Positions 23,973 to 61,075 of a DNA stretch of 64,000 nt are shown here, in pieces. Under the pieces are notes generated by a model. It worked only from the letters and a program-made list of their open reading frames with translations, was not told where the DNA came from and searched no databases. The stretch's first letter is position 1; each line of letters starts with the position of its first letter. A program made the position numbers and the translations under genes. Source of the DNA: a bacterium (GTDB taxonomy: Bacteria > Patescibacteriota > Microgenomatia > JAMCZE01); NCBI GenBank assembly GCA_021836035.1, contig JAKBJL010000002.1:3691-67690 (forward strand), read 5' to 3'.

Positions 23973-24520
23973 ATTTCTTCCAAAATTCTCCGGGTTTTAA
24001 CCCGCCTTTCGGCGATCTGTTCCACAAAATCGGTTACTCCGGTCTGCGGATACTGCCCTCTCGGGAGAAAACCCAATTCCCATAATAATTTTATAACAAA
24101 TTCCTTTGCTTTTCTCTCCGCAACCGCTCGCGGGTAGGAATGACCGGCTAAATCCCGCAGATATTTTTGAAAAGCTTCATAAACCCTATCCTGGGATACC
24201 CCTAGCGGCAGTAATTTATCGACAATCTCCGTAACATAGAATAGATAGCCGACGTTAGAAAATCCCGGACTGGTGGCAGAAATTGCCTTGCTGGTGCTTT
24301 TGACCTCGCTGGCCACCTCAAAAGTCCGGCCCTTATGTAAAATTATTTCCGCTTCATTAAACAGTTCGAGATGGGGCGCCCGGCGGCTTTTGATACTTCG
24401 TATTCCCCGGGCGAGGATTTCTATTTTCCCTTTTTCCCGGGTAAAAAGGGTAATCAGCTTATCCCTTTCGGCAATATTTTTCCTTTTCAAAACTATCCCT
24501 CTTACCTTAACGACTCTCAC
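23969..24520 (-). CDS. recO: DNA repair protein RecO
   Basis: N-terminal OB-fold pattern MRVVKVRGIVLKRKNIAERDKLITLFT and a RecO-like length of 183 aa. Confidence 0.65.
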   Translation of the reverse strand: MRVVKVRGIVLKRKNIAERDKLITLFTREKGKIEILARGIRSIKSRRAPHLELFNEAEIILHKGRTFEVASEVKSTSKAISATSPGFSNVGYLFYVTEIVDKLLPLGVSQDRVYEAFQKYLRDLAGHSYPRAVAERKAKEFVIKLLWELGFLPRGQYPQTGVTDFVEQIAERRVKTRRILEEI

Positions 24521-26430
24521 AATTTTAGGCTGATTTCTTTATCGGTGACCAAATCAAATTCCTGCACCTGGCCGTTAACGGAAACTTTGTAGTGATTGTT
24601 CTCCGTGCCCGGCTGTTTTTGAATCAGTTCCTTGTATTCCCCGCTGAACTTGACCGGCGTCTTGTACCTAATCTGAATCTTCTTAATGCTCTGGGGGAAA
24701 ATATCAAAAAAGCCGTCAACCACGGTTTTTCCTAAATCGTCAAAGGTGGTATTTTTATTCTCATAACCCCGCGCTTCCAAAAGAGTGGAACCGGCCGGCA
24801 GATAAACCCGCAGGTAATCCCGGTTCGTTCCGGCAAGACATACTCCCTCCTTGCGTTCTAAACTGCAATTATCCGCCCGGCGCGGATAACGGTATTCAAT
24901 TACCAGATTCGTTTCCGTCCCCTCCGGCTTTACCGTTACCTCCTGGGTAACCGCTTCGGTAATATATAAATTAGATTTTGCCCCTCCCAAATTAGCATCG
25001 TTGATATGCAGATAATCCCCCTGATAGTTTTTGATTTCCCCCCCCGCACCCAAAGCCAAAACTCCTTTTTGCGCGTCGGCATCCAGAAGATAAAAAAGGA
25101 TGTGTTTTTGCTCCATCTCGGTAAAGGCGGTTTGGAATAGCGAACCCCAAAGCTGCCGCGGTGCCCCCATGGCCTTCTGCATCATAGACTGCAAAAGGAC
25201 TCCGATAATATCTTTACGGCTGCCGCGTTCGTAACCTTTGGGCTCATCGGCGTATTTTTCCAATTCCCAAATAATCATCGGGCAGTCGCAAACCGCCACT
25301 TTTTCCGTCGTAAAATTAGTCCCGTAAGCGGGAATCGGACCCAGAACTTCCATGAGTTTTAATAACACATGCGTGTCCATGGCGATAATCCCGTCAATTT
25401 TTTTCTTGTCTGTGGAGGTGTTATACATGGTCATAAAAGTATTCATGGAACTGCCGAAATCGGGGGAAAAGTTGGCGTTACGGATATTCCAAACGGGCTC
25501 CCGTAAGTATTGCGCTATAGCTGCCGGCGGAGCAGGCTTTCTGGTAATGGTCTGATCGAGCTTGTAAATATCATCGGAAGTATCAATGTTGATTTTCCCC
25601 TTCTGCACCCGGAAAACCGCGTAGGCGGTAATAAAACCGCCGGTGGGGCGCAGCTCCGCATCGTTCTGAAAGAGAACCAGATATTTTTTCTCCGTCGTAG
25701 CGCCCAGCAACTGGGGTAATTGTTTGACCATCGGCCGGGCCTCCGTCAGAAAATCCCCGCTGATATCGACCAGCGTTTTGATATCGGTGATCCGGGAGCG
25801 GATCGGTTTACCCTGAAAGTTTTCCGGATAACGGTTAGCGTCAATCTGGTCAATTTCTTTGCGGGTCAGCTCCAGTTTTTCCGCAATGGCGTCAACCTGG
25901 GGAGTGACTTTGTCCAAAGTCTGTACCACGGTAACAATTCGGTCTTCCACCGTCCCGCCGCTAAAAGTGCCTTTCCCCTTAAGACCTAAAATATCGGAAT
26001 AGGGTTCGACGGCGGAAACTAAAATTTCCCCCGCTTCAATCCCATATTTTCCCGCTTTGGTTAAATGAAAGGCGTCGGCGGTATAATTCCCGAGAAACGG
26101 AATCGCTTTGGTCCAGGAAAGCGCTCCCAGGTCCGTTTCGACAGTTCCCAGTTGCGTTTTTAATTCGGAAAGTTTAGCTTTGGTTTTTTCTAAATCCTGA
26201 ACTTTGGCGGCGTCTTTTAATTCCAGCGCCGTTCCGTTTAATTTCATGGCATCCCGGTAGGTCTGGTAGGCCGGCCGGACGAGCAAAAACAGGGCCGCTA
26301 TAGCTACGACAATTACCAGCGCCAGTATGCCGCCGAGAACTTTTACCATCGTACGGATAGGAAATTGTCCGGAGCGGCTATTGCCCTCCGGCGACCGTTC
26401 AATTTTAATTTCTTTTATCTCCCCGAACAT
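24517..26430 (-). CDS. large bitopic extracytoplasmic protein, DUF4012-like
   Basis: 637 aa with a single N-terminal TM helix and a long exported domain. It lies immediately upstream of the polysaccharide cluster, a context typical of DUF4012 proteins. The family call is tentative. Confidence 0.4.
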   Translation of the reverse strand: MFGEIKEIKIERSPEGNSRSGQFPIRTMVKVLGGILALVIVVAIAALFLLVRPAYQTYRDAMKLNGTALELKDAAKVQDLEKTKAKLSELKTQLGTVETDLGALSWTKAIPFLGNYTADAFHLTKAGKYGIEAGEILVSAVEPYSDILGLKGKGTFSGGTVEDRIVTVVQTLDKVTPQVDAIAEKLELTRKEIDQIDANRYPENFQGKPIRSRITDIKTLVDISGDFLTEARPMVKQLPQLLGATTEKKYLVLFQNDAELRPTGGFITAYAVFRVQKGKINIDTSDDIYKLDQTITRKPAPPAAIAQYLREPVWNIRNANFSPDFGSSMNTFMTMYNTSTDKKKIDGIIAMDTHVLLKLMEVLGPIPAYGTNFTTEKVAVCDCPMIIWELEKYADEPKGYERGSRKDIIGVLLQSMMQKAMGAPRQLWGSLFQTAFTEMEQKHILFYLLDADAQKGVLALGAGGEIKNYQGDYLHINDANLGGAKSNLYITEAVTQEVTVKPEGTETNLVIEYRYPRRADNCSLERKEGVCLAGTNRDYLRVYLPAGSTLLEARGYENKNTTFDDLGKTVVDGFFDIFPQSIKKIQIRYKTPVKFSGEYKELIQKQPGTENNHYKVSVNGQVQEFDLVTDKEISLKL

Positions 26431-26471
26431 AAGAAATAAGGAAGTTTCATTTTAACGGATTATTTTCTATT

Positions 26472-59800: not shown

Positions 59801-59818
59801 ATTTTTCTCCCTGTTAAG

Positions 59819-61075
59819 CTAAAACTTAGTCTCTTTAAGTCTCAAGCCCGCTAACCCCCAATTCGGGGTATTAAAAATAATCGGTTTATTACTTCGGCCC
59901 ATCTTGTTTAAATAACCGCGAAGATCGCGATTTTTCAGATAAGGAATTTTTTCCCTGTCTAAACGCCGGAATATATTTTGGACCTTAGCAAACGACCAAC
60001 TCGGTCCATAGCTATGTTCAATATGATATATTTCCATGGGTGATTTTAAAACCAGCTCTTTGTTGCCGGCAAAATGGGCAAGATAGCAGAGCAGCGAGTC
60101 AAGATGGAAGGAGTATATCGGCATTTCCGGATACCCTCTCACTCGCAGCCAGCTGTCCCTCGACAAGAGAGTGAAGTCTCCGCAGGCATTAGTATGAAGA
60201 TTTATTTCCCCTCTTAAAAAATAGCGGTAATCTATTTGGCCGAGAAGCATTTTCCTGAGTATTTTTCCCAGTTTTCTTAAGAGAAATACCCTTCGCATGA
60301 TAAAAGGCTTGATTTCCCCAATTGTTAATTGTCCCTTGCGGGGCGGGAAATAGGGAAAAAAGTCTTTTATAAAATGCCAAACTATATTCCAGATTGTTGT
60401 TAGTGCCTGCCAGGACTTTGAACGGGATAAGAAATTATCTTTTGAAATCCGTGCCATAACATGTTTATAGAAACGATATTGCCAGTACCATTTAAATACT
60501 CTTGTCTTTCCGCGCTCATTAACCCGCAGAACATGATTCCGGCAATACTCCAGTTGCTTATTTAAGGAAGCCGCGGGTATCTGTGAATCCGCGTCTATCC
60601 GGTCAAGGCGGTACATATATTTAGTATCCAGCCTCCTCTCGCTCAGGAAACTGATTGTTTCGTTGGAGAATAAAATATCCATGTTGGTTGCCAAAATATA
60701 GTCTCCTTGGGCTCTCCTTATGCCAACATTTTTCGCAAGCATCTGAAAAATCGGCAACTTTTTGGCATTATCCAGTTTTTTATGAACAGACGACGGAACA
60801 CGGATAATTCTAATAGTAAAATAATTACGATTGGGCAAAATAGTTAAAGCCCTGTCCAGGGATAAAGTTCCGGGCGGAGGGTTCCATTCCACTAAGATTA
60901 ATTCGCACGGCAACTTGAAATGTTCCGCCTGCTCGGTTAAAGCGTTAACGAATAACTGCATTCTGTTTAACATATTTCCGCCGTGGTTATCGTTGCGGGA
61001 GGTAACCACGATGGAAAGATATGGTTTACTGTTTAAATTTCGCTTAGAAAGATACATGTTTGTTTTTAACAGCAA
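59819..61075 (-). CDS. hypothetical protein, possibly a glycosyltransferase-like alpha/beta protein
   Basis: 418 aa. LSIVVTSRNDNHGG...ELILVEWNPPPG weakly resembles GT-A N-terminal strands. Unassigned. Confidence 0.3.
   Translation of the reverse strand: MLLKTNMYLSKRNLNSKPYLSIVVTSRNDNHGGNMLNRMQLFVNALTEQAEHFKLPCELILVEWNPPPGTLSLDRALTILPNRNYFTIRIIRVPSSVHKKLDNAKKLPIFQMLAKNVGIRRAQGDYILATNMDILFSNETISFLSERRLDTKYMYRLDRIDADSQIPAASLNKQLEYCRNHVLRVNERGKTRVFKWYWQYRFYKHVMARISKDNFLSRSKSWQALTTIWNIVWHFIKDFFPYFPPRKGQLTIGEIKPFIMRRVFLLRKLGKILRKMLLGQIDYRYFLRGEINLHTNACGDFTLLSRDSWLRVRGYPEMPIYSFHLDSLLCYLAHFAGNKELVLKSPMEIYHIEHSYGPSWSFAKVQNIFRRLDREKIPYLKNRDLRGYLNKMGRSNKPIIFNTPNWGLAGLRLKETKF

Follow-up and report, generated by a model that had tools for sequence, protein, structure and literature searches.

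A layered, glycosyltransferase-rich surface-glycan locus with a core conserved across sampled Microgenomates

The DNA analyzed here (the window) is a stretch of 64,000 nucleotides from a Microgenomates bacterium of the Candidate Phyla Radiation (CPR), taken from contig JAKBJL010000002.1 of assembly GCA_021836035.1. Between positions 24517 and 61075 it carries a surface-glycan locus of ~36.5 kb composed of 30 packed open reading frames (ORFs), whose junctions are mostly overlaps of 1–4 nt or gaps of less than 65 nt, and which we numbered g1 to g30 along the direction of transcription, i.e., from high to low coordinates. Such a locus had been proposed in a preliminary description made from the sequence alone, and it was borne out when gene families were assigned by Pfam and NCBIfam profile searches, with Pfam glycosyltransferase (GT) families standing in for CAZy classes. 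About 20 of the 30 genes encode glycosyltransferases of some kind, in keeping with the large investment that had been supposed for a small genome. The array had also been called continuous and co-directional, which is true of the 29 genes on the minus strand, but g20 is inverted. It does not follow recO, as had been stated; recO lies instead downstream of it in the direction of transcription, overlapping the stop codon of g30 by 4 nt. Located 3′ of recO are a frameshifted class-II aminoacyl-tRNA synthetase gene (glyS-like) and then a complete division and cell wall (dcw) cluster (mraZ, rsmH, PBP, murE, murD, murC, murB, murA, mraY, ftsW, murG, ftsA, ftsZ).

The locus is layered in three tiers. 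The first is a core, g15–g30 (24517–44088, ~19 kb); the second, a sub-lineage module, comprises g9 and g11–g14 together with g19–g21, which are inserted between the tandem GT4 paralogs g18 and g22; and the third, g1–g8 plus g10, is species-specific and lower in GC content (43.3% across 44.1–61.1 kb vs. 48.1% in the core). What had been described as a single 36-kb locus is therefore not uniform: the 3′ 19 kb form a conserved core and the 5′ 17 kb a lineage- or species-specific decoration.

A survey of synteny in related genomes had been suggested and was run. When one genome per GTDB species was scanned, the g24 protein turned up in at least 571 genomes, from which the 79 best loci were taken with 10-kb flanks and searched by tblastn with all proteins of the window; about 50 of these loci were informative. 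The 79 loci come from Gottesman-, Woese-, Curtiss-, Beckwith-, Chisholm-, Pace-, Davies- and Roizmanbacteria. Throughout the informative loci the order and strand of the core are constant, reading g15-g16-g17-g18, then g19–g21 in the closest relatives only, g22-g23, an extra GT2 gene in most lineages, and g24-g25-g26-g27-g28-g29-g30, after which recO and glyS follow across the sampled loci. On the upstream side of g24, 46 loci extended for at least 9 kb, and of these g23 and g22 were each found in 46, g18 in 45 and g17 in 40; downstream, where 50 loci offered at least 9 kb, the counts were 50 for g25, 49 for g27, 48 each for g26 and g28, and 45 for g29. The counts of g15, g16, g30 and recO are lower because the flanks end at 10 kb. 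For the core genes the median identities range from 36 to 56% (the maximum being that of g23), compared to 33% for recO. The core is thus conserved across the sampled Microgenomates. We found no published description of a conserved operon of this kind in Microgenomates, of the WaaL-like/GT-C pair described below or of a function for DUF4012 in the searchable literature, whose coverage excludes subscription journals.

Those g24 homologs that carry names are assigned to Patescibacteria, Microgenomates or Gottesmanbacteria; there are also contigs of ~1 Mb from relatives. Since even the nearest relatives are just 62–64% identical in g24, we place the source lineage near Gottesmanbacteria and no closer. 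NCBI taxonomy puts these lineages in unclassified Minisyncoccota, the grouping “Microgenomates” being that of the older CPR literature. The core locus also occurs in dozens of third-party annotation (TPA) “binchicken” metagenome-assembled genomes (MAGs) that bear the title “uncultured Gammaproteobacteria” or “Pseudomonadales,” and one 3.3-kb contig is filed under Omnitrophota (all within L002–L080); mislabelling or mis-binning of these records is probable.

The 5′ half behaves differently, as seen in a comparison with three relatives (loci L161, L163 and L164). The flippase gene g13 has 12 database homologs only, at no more than 45% identity, and upstream of it the gene content is wholly different in the three: UDP-GlcNAc 2-epimerase, FnlA-like short-chain dehydrogenases/reductases (SDRs) and methyltransferases in L161; GT11, DUF268 and a GT2-PMT_2 fusion in L163; GFO/IDH/MocA, a hexapeptide transferase and DUF2079 in L164. 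Genes g9 and g11–g14 have counterparts of 31–55% identity in these relatives (34–55% for g11, in all three), whereas none were found there for g1–g8. A homolog of g10 with 62% identity is present in L161, relocated and inverted. The g19–g21 insertion, three genes for GT-C-type proteins, is confined to the nearest relatives. A metagenome scan anchored on the alignment of the g16 GT2 was discarded, as it picked up generic GT2 motifs and all of its loci but two (L081 and L082) were unrelated GT2 genes.

The profile searches (Table 1) recovered the exported DUF4012-like protein (g30), the priming sugar-phosphate transferase (g29), the Wzx flippase (g13), the Wzy_C-GT39 fusion (g24, Wzy_C plus PMT_2), the left-handed beta-helix (LbH) acetyltransferase (g23), the UDP-sugar 6-dehydrogenase (g4) and the CapK-like adenylating enzyme (g2) that had been named earlier, and the two supposed epimerases (g5 and g10) as SDR enzymes. 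For g29 the match is to EPS_sugtrans (3.8e-73), i.e., to the catalytic domain of EPS_sugtrans, WbaP and WcaJ; g4 scores above cutoff in TIGR03026 (342.9 bits), with AglM and TuaD as best equivalogs; and g2 matches the DVU1553-family AMP ligase (3.8e-33) and PaaK (8e-19) in NCBIfam, all under the equivalog cutoffs. Of the pair of a membrane-bound O-acyltransferase (MBOAT) and an SGNH-like partner, the MBOAT g7 is clear, while g8 shows a faint match to Lipase_GDSL_2 (E 0.032, 15.2 bits vs. a cutoff of 32.9).

Table 1. Genes and gene remnants of the glycan locus and its immediate surroundings, listed along the direction of transcription (TM, transmembrane helices)
Feature	Position	Strand	Evidence and remarks
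Truncated GT4 remnant	62924..63667	-	Glyco_transf_4 domain; 246 aa
Degenerate TagH/Wzt-like ABC ATPase remnant	62400..62972	-	ABC_tran; 190 aa
Class I S-adenosylmethionine (SAM) methyltransferase, upstream of the array	61666..62409	-	Methyltransf_23, _11, _12
g1: soluble, possibly GT-A-like	59819..61057	-	Gene caller start 61057; species-specific module
g2: CapK/PaaK/F390-synthetase-like adenylate-forming enzyme	58487..59800	-	NCBIfam and Pfam CapK_C
g3: DUF362 protein	57015..58490	-	PF04015, 80.6 bits
g4: NDP-sugar 6-dehydrogenase, most like UDP-glucose 6-dehydrogenase	55684..57015	-	All three UDPG_MGDP_dh domains
g5: SDR epimerase/reductase	54682..55674	-	PF01370 5.9e-43; equivalog matches weak only
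g6: doubtful GT2-like	53731..54633	-	Glycos_transf_2 17.9 bits vs. 23.3 cutoff
g7: MBOAT membrane O-acyltransferase	52156..53667	-	PF03062 94.3 bits; ~7 or more TM
g8: membrane-anchored MBOAT partner, possibly SGNH-like	51176..52153	-	One N-terminal TM
g9: GT4	50009..51160	-	Glycos_transf_1, 119.6 bits
g10: GalE/TviC-like NDP-sugar 4-epimerase (SDR)	49065..50006	-	PF01370 228.9 bits; galE 6e-57, TviC 3e-51
g11: DUF2142 GT-C-type membrane glycosyltransferase	47503..49068	-	PF09913 72.7 bits; ~10 TM
g12: GT-C-type membrane protein	46053..47519	-	PMT_2 24.8 bits, just below cutoff; ~10 TM
g13: Wzx-type flippase	44879..46105	-	Polysacc_synt 66.8 bits; ~12 TM
g14: GT2	44085..44903	-	Glycos_transf_2, 61.7 bits
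g15: GT4, first core gene	43009..44088	-	Pfam and synteny
g16: GT2 (core)	42185..43012	-	Glycos_transf_2, 113 bits
g17: PMT_2 GT-C (core)	40893..42185	-	PMT_2 37.2 bits; invariant “LWLDEA” loop
g18: GT4 (core), tandem paralog of g22	39745..40896	-	Pfam; phmmer vs. g22 1e-43
g19: GT-C-like polytopic membrane protein	38664..39761	-	Without Pfam match; ~7 TM; hhalign to g17 family
g20: inverted polytopic membrane protein, probably GT-C-like	37422..38747	+	hhalign to g17 family
g21: GT-C-like membrane protein	36302..37465	-	Paralog of g12 by phmmer
g22: GT4 (core)	35157..36305	-	Glycos_transf_1, 116.6 bits
g23: LbH (WcaF/WbbJ-like) O-acetyltransferase (core)	34540..35148	-	Hexapep; WcaF family 8.5e-29, sub-cutoff
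g24: fusion WaaL-like (Wzy_C) + GT-C (PMT_2, ArnT-like) (core)	31406..34540	-	Pfam
g25: GT4 (core)	30188..31399	-	Pfam
g26: GT2 (core)	29293..30258	-	Glycos_transf_2, 87.1 bits
g27: GT4 (core)	28178..29296	-	Pfam
g28: GT4 (core)	27103..28209	-	Pfam
g29: small polyprenyl-phosphate hexose-1-phosphate transferase, priming enzyme (core)	26472..27236	-	Bac_transf 198.8 bits
g30: DUF4012 membrane-anchored extracytoplasmic protein (core)	24517..26430	-	PF13196 99.7 bits
recO	23969..24520	-	RecO_N + RecO_C; after g30 in relatives too

Of the dozen or so GT4 and GT2 enzymes originally counted, ten are firm, namely seven GT4 (g9, g15, g18, g22, g25, g27, g28) and three GT2 above threshold (g14, g16, g26); g6 and g1 are doubtful GT-A-like proteins, the former sub-threshold and the latter without any match to a profile. 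Indeed g1 matched nothing in Pfam or NCBIfam even at E 10. It belongs to a family of 3181 representatives (E ≤ 1e-3, 50% clustering) that has no Pfam model and whose domain often occurs in 2–4 copies within giant proteins of up to 2826 aa. Motifs spotted by eye (SIVVTSRNDNHGG...DYILATNMDILF) are GT-A-like, but Pfam searches with ten homologs returned a single sub-threshold match, to Glyco_transf_49, and g1 was not accepted as a confirmed glycosyltransferase.

At least eight GT-C membrane glycosyltransferases had been proposed. We find six to seven such proteins, and eight membrane glycosyltransferase domains only when the WaaL-like half of g24 is included. With the PMT_2 cutoff at 26.1 bits, g17, the C-terminal half of g24 and g11 exceed the thresholds of PMT_2 or DUF2142 and g12 falls just below; all four have 9–10 predicted transmembrane helices. 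Support for the remaining candidates comes from comparisons within the locus: g12 and g21 are paralogous (phmmer ~1e-14 to 2e-14), the family alignment of g19 matches that of the g17 PMT_2 family (hhalign 94.6%, E 7e-8, “FFQDD” aligning on “LWLDEA”), and that of g20 does so more weakly (74.5%, E 2.7e-5). These comparisons point to six well-supported GT-C proteins and a probable seventh, g20. Acidic motifs of the GT-C type, the invariant “ADWHSWRQxDT” in g24 and “LWLDEA” in g17, are predicted to lie in the first extracytoplasmic loop. The inverted g20 is the sole long ORF on either strand of its 1.3-kb slot and overlaps both neighbors, and since orthologs with 47–49% identity are found inverted at the same place in two relatives (L009, 5418–6683; L026, 3821–5071), we consider it a real gene under selection. 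Profile comparison gave no support to the idea that g16 is a donor synthase of the GtrB/DPM1 type working with g17, as the g16 profile matches chondroitin synthase and GalT1 best and DPMS, ArnC and GtrB less, via the N-terminal GT-A core only, and no equivalog matched.

The largest core protein, g24, has more than 900 full-length homologs with 50–64% identity and combines a Wzy_C domain (residues 233–453, 42.6 bits vs. a cutoff of 31.7) with a PMT_2 domain (residues 637–785, 67.2 bits). In an AlphaFold model built from 20 homologs (pLDDT 74, i.e., medium confidence), the one protein of the locus on which the GT-C fold was tested, the C-terminal half matched ArnT (5f15, E 1.2e-7, TM-score 0.61), ALG12 (TM-score 0.63), OST/PglB/AglB, AftA, AftD and Emb, and further fold matches of the protein were to Pmt1/2/4 and PimE. 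The N-terminal half matched the O-antigen ligase WaaL in a Foldseek search (7tpg_B, E 1.5e-4, TM-score normalized to the target 0.54). At the sequence level no chain in the Protein Data Bank (PDB) was matched by g24, and neither its profile nor its N-terminal half, nor g1, g8 or g30 (the last searched both as a single sequence and as a profile), gave meaningful PDB matches. As a yardstick we used H[NSQ]X9GXX[GTY], which we take to be the WaaL ligase motif, with its catalytic His. The corresponding stretch of g24, “ESTDNDYLRxLGETGxLG,” reads D-N-X9-G-XX-G, i.e., it keeps the spacing of the ligase motif while the His is replaced by Asp430, invariantly in 20 of 20 members; because of this replacement we name the N-terminal half WaaL-like and not WaaL. 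It contains the only Wzy_C domain in the locus, its nearest fold is WaaL, and these data do not distinguish ligase from polymerase roles. A single ORF encodes g24 in 30 loci, all of them Gottesmanbacteria-like; elsewhere the halves are separate adjacent ORFs, as checked in a complete genome of Beckwithbacteria (L070, 538 + 477 aa) and in a Woesebacteria MAG (L029, 553 + 472 aa). Being always adjacent, and fused in one lineage, the two activities would be expected to act on the same substrate.

The last core gene, g30, encodes a DUF4012 protein with 3466 homologs, 45–63% identity within the group and four invariant Cys. This family is among those enriched in CPR and Gram-positive bacteria with no function assigned (Meheust et al., PMC6744442), and in the exopolysaccharide (EPS) cluster of Bifidobacterium longum 105-A a DUF4012 gene lies beside that of the priming transferase (PMC5412050). 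A medium-confidence model (pLDDT 78, pTM 0.72) shows an N-terminal transmembrane helix, helical hairpins (25–241), an alpha/beta domain (247–470) and a C-terminal beta-sandwich. Searching the PDB for its fold gave no match at E < 1e-3; the best ones, 3owq (E 2.6e-3, TM-score 0.45) and 3nro, are weak, yet both are verified LytR-CpsA-Psr (LCP) domains, and no other LCP structures were among the top 50. Neither Pfam nor NCBIfam LCP profiles matched g30, and tblastn with an LCP consensus against 164 fetched loci (2.2 Mb) detected no LCP gene within 10 kb of the core. An alignment of the DUF4012 and LCP families by hhalign was not significant (probability 0.1%), with only IDGIIAMDTHVLLKLMEVLGPI aligned with the LCP segment IDYYVVVDFEGFKKLVDALGGI. 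We therefore regard an LCP-like anchoring role of g30 as a weak structural lead and not as a finding.

Upstream of g1 lies a SAM methyltransferase gene that may be part of the variable module. The remnants of a Wzt ABC exporter mentioned in the preliminary description are real and degenerate, but they lie outside the interval, at 62400–62972: stop codons truncate the ATPase at its N-terminus, Gln stands for Lys in its Walker A motif, GRNGSGQST, and it carries a TagH/Wzt-like signature. Overlapping it is a GT4 remnant that has lost its C-terminal domain after ~40 aa. ORFs of the same size and domains (190-aa ABC_tran, 246-aa GT4) were called in Logan assembly contig L001, which may or may not derive from independent reads. 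The remnants (62400–63667) look like the deletion scar of an ABC-transporter-dependent glycan export system. Beyond the end of the window, on the same contig (L001 1–3333), there are genes for a radical SAM/SPASM protein and a Methyltransf_21 protein, so the variable glycan-modification region may run past position 64000.

Scans for sigma-70 promoters gave counts equal to those of shuffled sequence in both halves of the locus. Terminator-like sites equaled shuffles at 44–64 kb and exceeded them at 24–44 kb (55 vs. 35); since no promoter- or terminator-like site marks a gene boundary, operon boundaries cannot be drawn. Neither a tRNA scan nor an Rfam scan returned matches. The glyS-like gene (22639–23972, minus strand) is split into overlapping ORFs in different frames (23457–23972 and 22639–23577), which share one frame in two relatives, L006 and L026; either the assembly has an indel here or the frameshift is real, and because the gene is an essential one, some indel errors of the assembly are possible in the window. 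Elsewhere, the N-terminal 150 aa of a class-I aminoacyl-tRNA synthetase (tRNA-synt_1; 4748–5200, minus strand) are encoded in the space that separates ftsZ from an amidase gene, which is too short for the remainder, and the GC content drops below ~6 kb, near this fragment. Together these features suggest that the enzyme was truncated or that an insertion ends or the assembly was joined here. The otherwise co-directional dcw cluster is broken by a greA-like gene of opposite orientation (16665–17279, plus), and beside it a MurE-like ORF (17398–18594) is 398 aa long only and without a match to the N-terminal Mur ligase domain.

Because the downstream 19 kb are kept almost gene for gene across Microgenomates, the core probably makes a basic, shared and so far undescribed envelope glycan, not a strain-specific coat. 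Taken as a whole, the gene families suggest, with a probability that we put at roughly 60%, that the locus is a layered, undecaprenyl-phosphate- and Wzx-dependent cluster that makes a conserved glycoconjugate of the envelope and decorates it variably. Assigned here at the level of the family are the phosphoglycosyl transferase g29, six core GT4 enzymes (g15, g18, g22, g25, g27, g28), two core GT2 enzymes (g16, g26) and the LbH acetyltransferase g23. Judging from these families, g29 would prime undecaprenyl phosphate with a hexose-1-phosphate, the eight core glycosyltransferases would build a defined lipid-linked oligosaccharide on the cytoplasmic face, and g23 would O-acetylate it. The flippase g13 would then turn the lipid-linked glycan to the outer face, where the WaaL-like half of g24 might transfer or polymerize it from undecaprenyl diphosphate and the GT-C half of g24, together with g17, might add sugars from polyprenyl-phosphate donors. 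The DUF4012 protein g30, always encoded after the priming enzyme, may act late and extracellularly, possibly anchoring the product, for which a membrane lipid, protein and peptidoglycan are candidate acceptors. The flippase would come from the sub-lineage module, along with additional Leloir glycosyltransferases and a further five GT-C enzymes. In the species-specific module, g4, g10 and g5 could supply uronic-acid or epimerised precursors, g7 and g8 may act as an MBOAT-based O-acylation pair adding O-acyl groups, and the CapK-like ligase g2 possibly provides an acyl donor or an amide substituent.

Several points weigh against this reading. No flippase other than Wzx was seen, and its conservation falls far short of that of the core that it would have to serve. 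The window contains no gene for Wzz or another polysaccharide co-polymerase (PCP), LCP, a sortase substrate or an S-layer protein, and profile searches for Wzz, GNVR and tyrosine kinase gave no matches in the 30 ORFs or their flanks. None of the GT2 enzymes in the locus is clearly a polyprenyl-phosphate-sugar synthase by profiles or equivalogs, so that the donors for the six to seven GT-C enzymes are unaccounted for. The WaaL-like domain, lacking the catalytic His, may have an activity that differs from the canonical one, and the core might encode two separate products and not one. Finally, synteny was read from the 79 best of at least 571 matching genomes, within flanks of 10 kb.

The same genes could instead serve general protein O-glycosylation, in which case g24 would be an O-oligosaccharyltransferase of the PglL/WsaB type acting onto Ser/Thr/Tyr of surface proteins (S-layer, pilin or other), its fused PMT-like GT-C would likewise be protein-directed, and the variable module would build a species-specific outer glycan, as in the system of Bacteroidota. 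Bacterial O-oligosaccharyltransferases have Wzy_C as their domain, and protein O-mannosyltransferases are relatives of PMT_2; the two domains are fused or adjacent in every lineage, the fold search with g24 also returns Pmt1/2/4 and OST/PglB/AglB, and a conserved core with a variable outer part is typical of general O-glycosylation systems, too. Nevertheless, we consider this rather unlikely: neither within the conserved block nor next to it is there a gene for an acceptor protein (S-layer, pilin), ArnT, whose acceptor is a lipid, ranks ahead of Pmt as the first of the GT-C fold matches, the His of the motif that is essential in PglL and WaaL is Asp in g24, and DUF4012 goes with polysaccharide (EPS) clusters in Bifidobacterium. 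Improbable, in our view, is a lipoglycan resembling mycobacterial lipomannan and lipoarabinomannan (LM/LAM), for which Leloir enzymes would make primers and donors and GT-Cs would use polyprenyl-phosphate sugars to extend a short lipid- or glycolipid-linked primer outside the cell. Seven GT-C-type proteins in one locus, the fold matches of g24 to AftA, AftD, Emb and PimE, and the absence of a wall-ligase (LCP) gene nearby would all fit, but no polyprenyl-phosphate-sugar synthase is recognizable, just two of the GT-C domains (g17 and the C-terminal half of g24) belong to the core while the others are lineage-specific, and the phosphoglycosyl transferase and Wzx point to en-bloc transfer of a preassembled unit.

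An ordinary strain-variable capsule, EPS or O-antigen-like Wzx/Wzy locus, with the N-terminal half of g24 as its Wzy polymerase and a gene content that simply mirrors serotype diversity, has the classic parts list on its side (priming transferase, Wzx, Wzy_C, GT4 and GT2 enzymes, acetyltransferases, precursor genes), and the 5′ half does behave as a serotype region in its variable content and low GC. For the core it is contradicted, since g15–g30 are conserved and content varies in g1–g14 only: 19 kb of constant order and strand, at 36–56% identity over at least eight Microgenomates candidate phyla and beside recO and glyS, are the opposite of what serotype loci show. Six to seven GT-C enzymes are moreover atypical for capsule loci, and no Pfam match to Wzz/PCP, tyrosine kinase or an export component was found in the locus, which makes this reading very improbable. 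A layered cluster for a conserved, variably decorated envelope glycoconjugate remains our preferred interpretation, and it allows a bolder and quite tentative version: that g15–g30 encode a never described housekeeping envelope glycopolymer of Microgenomates, the counterpart of teichoic acid or arabinogalactan, assembled by a non-canonical pair of WaaL-like and GT-C enzymes and anchored in a divergent LCP-like manner by DUF4012, with the 5′ modules generating the surface diversity on which attachment to hosts and recognition by phages would depend in these episymbionts.

CPR bacteria are thought to live attached to other cells, and little is known of their envelope chemistry. A 19-kb operon beside recO, glyS and the cell-division and wall cluster provides a genetic handle on a shared envelope glycan of Microgenomates, and two of its products are directly testable enzymes, i.e., the WaaL-like/GT-C pair with its altered catalytic motif and the CPR-enriched DUF4012, while the variable 5′ modules offer a means to type surface variation. 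If the core product proved to be essential, it could serve as a marker of these organisms and as a target through which to label, enrich or cultivate them.

Among known systems, general O-glycosylation (PglL; WsaB of S-layers; Bacteroidota such as Tannerella) shares a Wzy_C-family transferase, Wzx and a conserved core glycan with a species-specific outer part. Here, however, no acceptor gene is linked and the catalytic His is not kept, and DUF4012 and multiple GT-Cs are not known to belong to those systems. The mycobacterial machinery for arabinogalactan and LM/LAM (Emb, Aft, PimE, Pmt) resembles the locus in devoting many GT-Cs with polyprenyl-phosphate donors to one envelope polymer, and g24 has fold matches to it; there is no sequence-level relationship, though, no decaprenyl-phosphate-arabinose (DPA) or polyprenyl-phosphomannose (PPM) synthase was recognised, and the GT-C genes here are clustered with a Wzx-type pathway. 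With the Wzx/Wzy O-antigen systems and their WaaL the locus has in common the phosphoglycosyl transferase, the Leloir glycosyltransferases, Wzx and a Wzy_C-family enzyme with a predicted WaaL-like fold. It differs in having Asp for His, in a ligase-like domain that is fused or adjacent to a GT-C, and in genes that are conserved, not serotype-variable; moreover, since an outer membrane is believed to be absent from CPR bacteria (PMC6744442), no lipid A-core acceptor is to be expected in this host. In the EPS/capsular polysaccharide (CPS) cluster of B. longum 105-A (priming GT – DUF4012 – wzz), DUF4012 stands beside the priming phosphotransferase as do g29 and g30 (PMC5412050), but that cluster is strain-variable, contains Wzz and is without the WaaL-like/GT-C pair.

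Closest in logic are the loci for rhamnose-containing cell wall polysaccharides (Rha-CWPS; cwps/rgp/gac) of lactococci and streptococci. The differences are several: no rmlABCD and no equivalog of the RgpA/B/F-type rhamnan enzymes scored above cutoff here, the ABC exporter is represented by a degenerate ATPase fragment and not by a functional system, no donor synthase of the GacI/GacJ or WpsA/B type was recognised and no LCP ligase lies nearby, and the WaaL-like/GT-C pair and DUF4012 are without counterpart in those loci as described. Yet the degenerate TagH/Wzt-like ATPase by the locus recalls their ABC-exported backbone. In the Rha-CWPS pathways, undecaprenyl-linked units are flipped by a Wzx-type flippase, GT-C enzymes join such a variable unit to the conserved backbone or decorate the chains outside the membrane, and acetyl and other substituents are added (PMC10821137, PMC9574508, PMC8035078, PMC9746298); and their genes, like those described here, form a large locus with a conserved and a variable part (PMC10821137).

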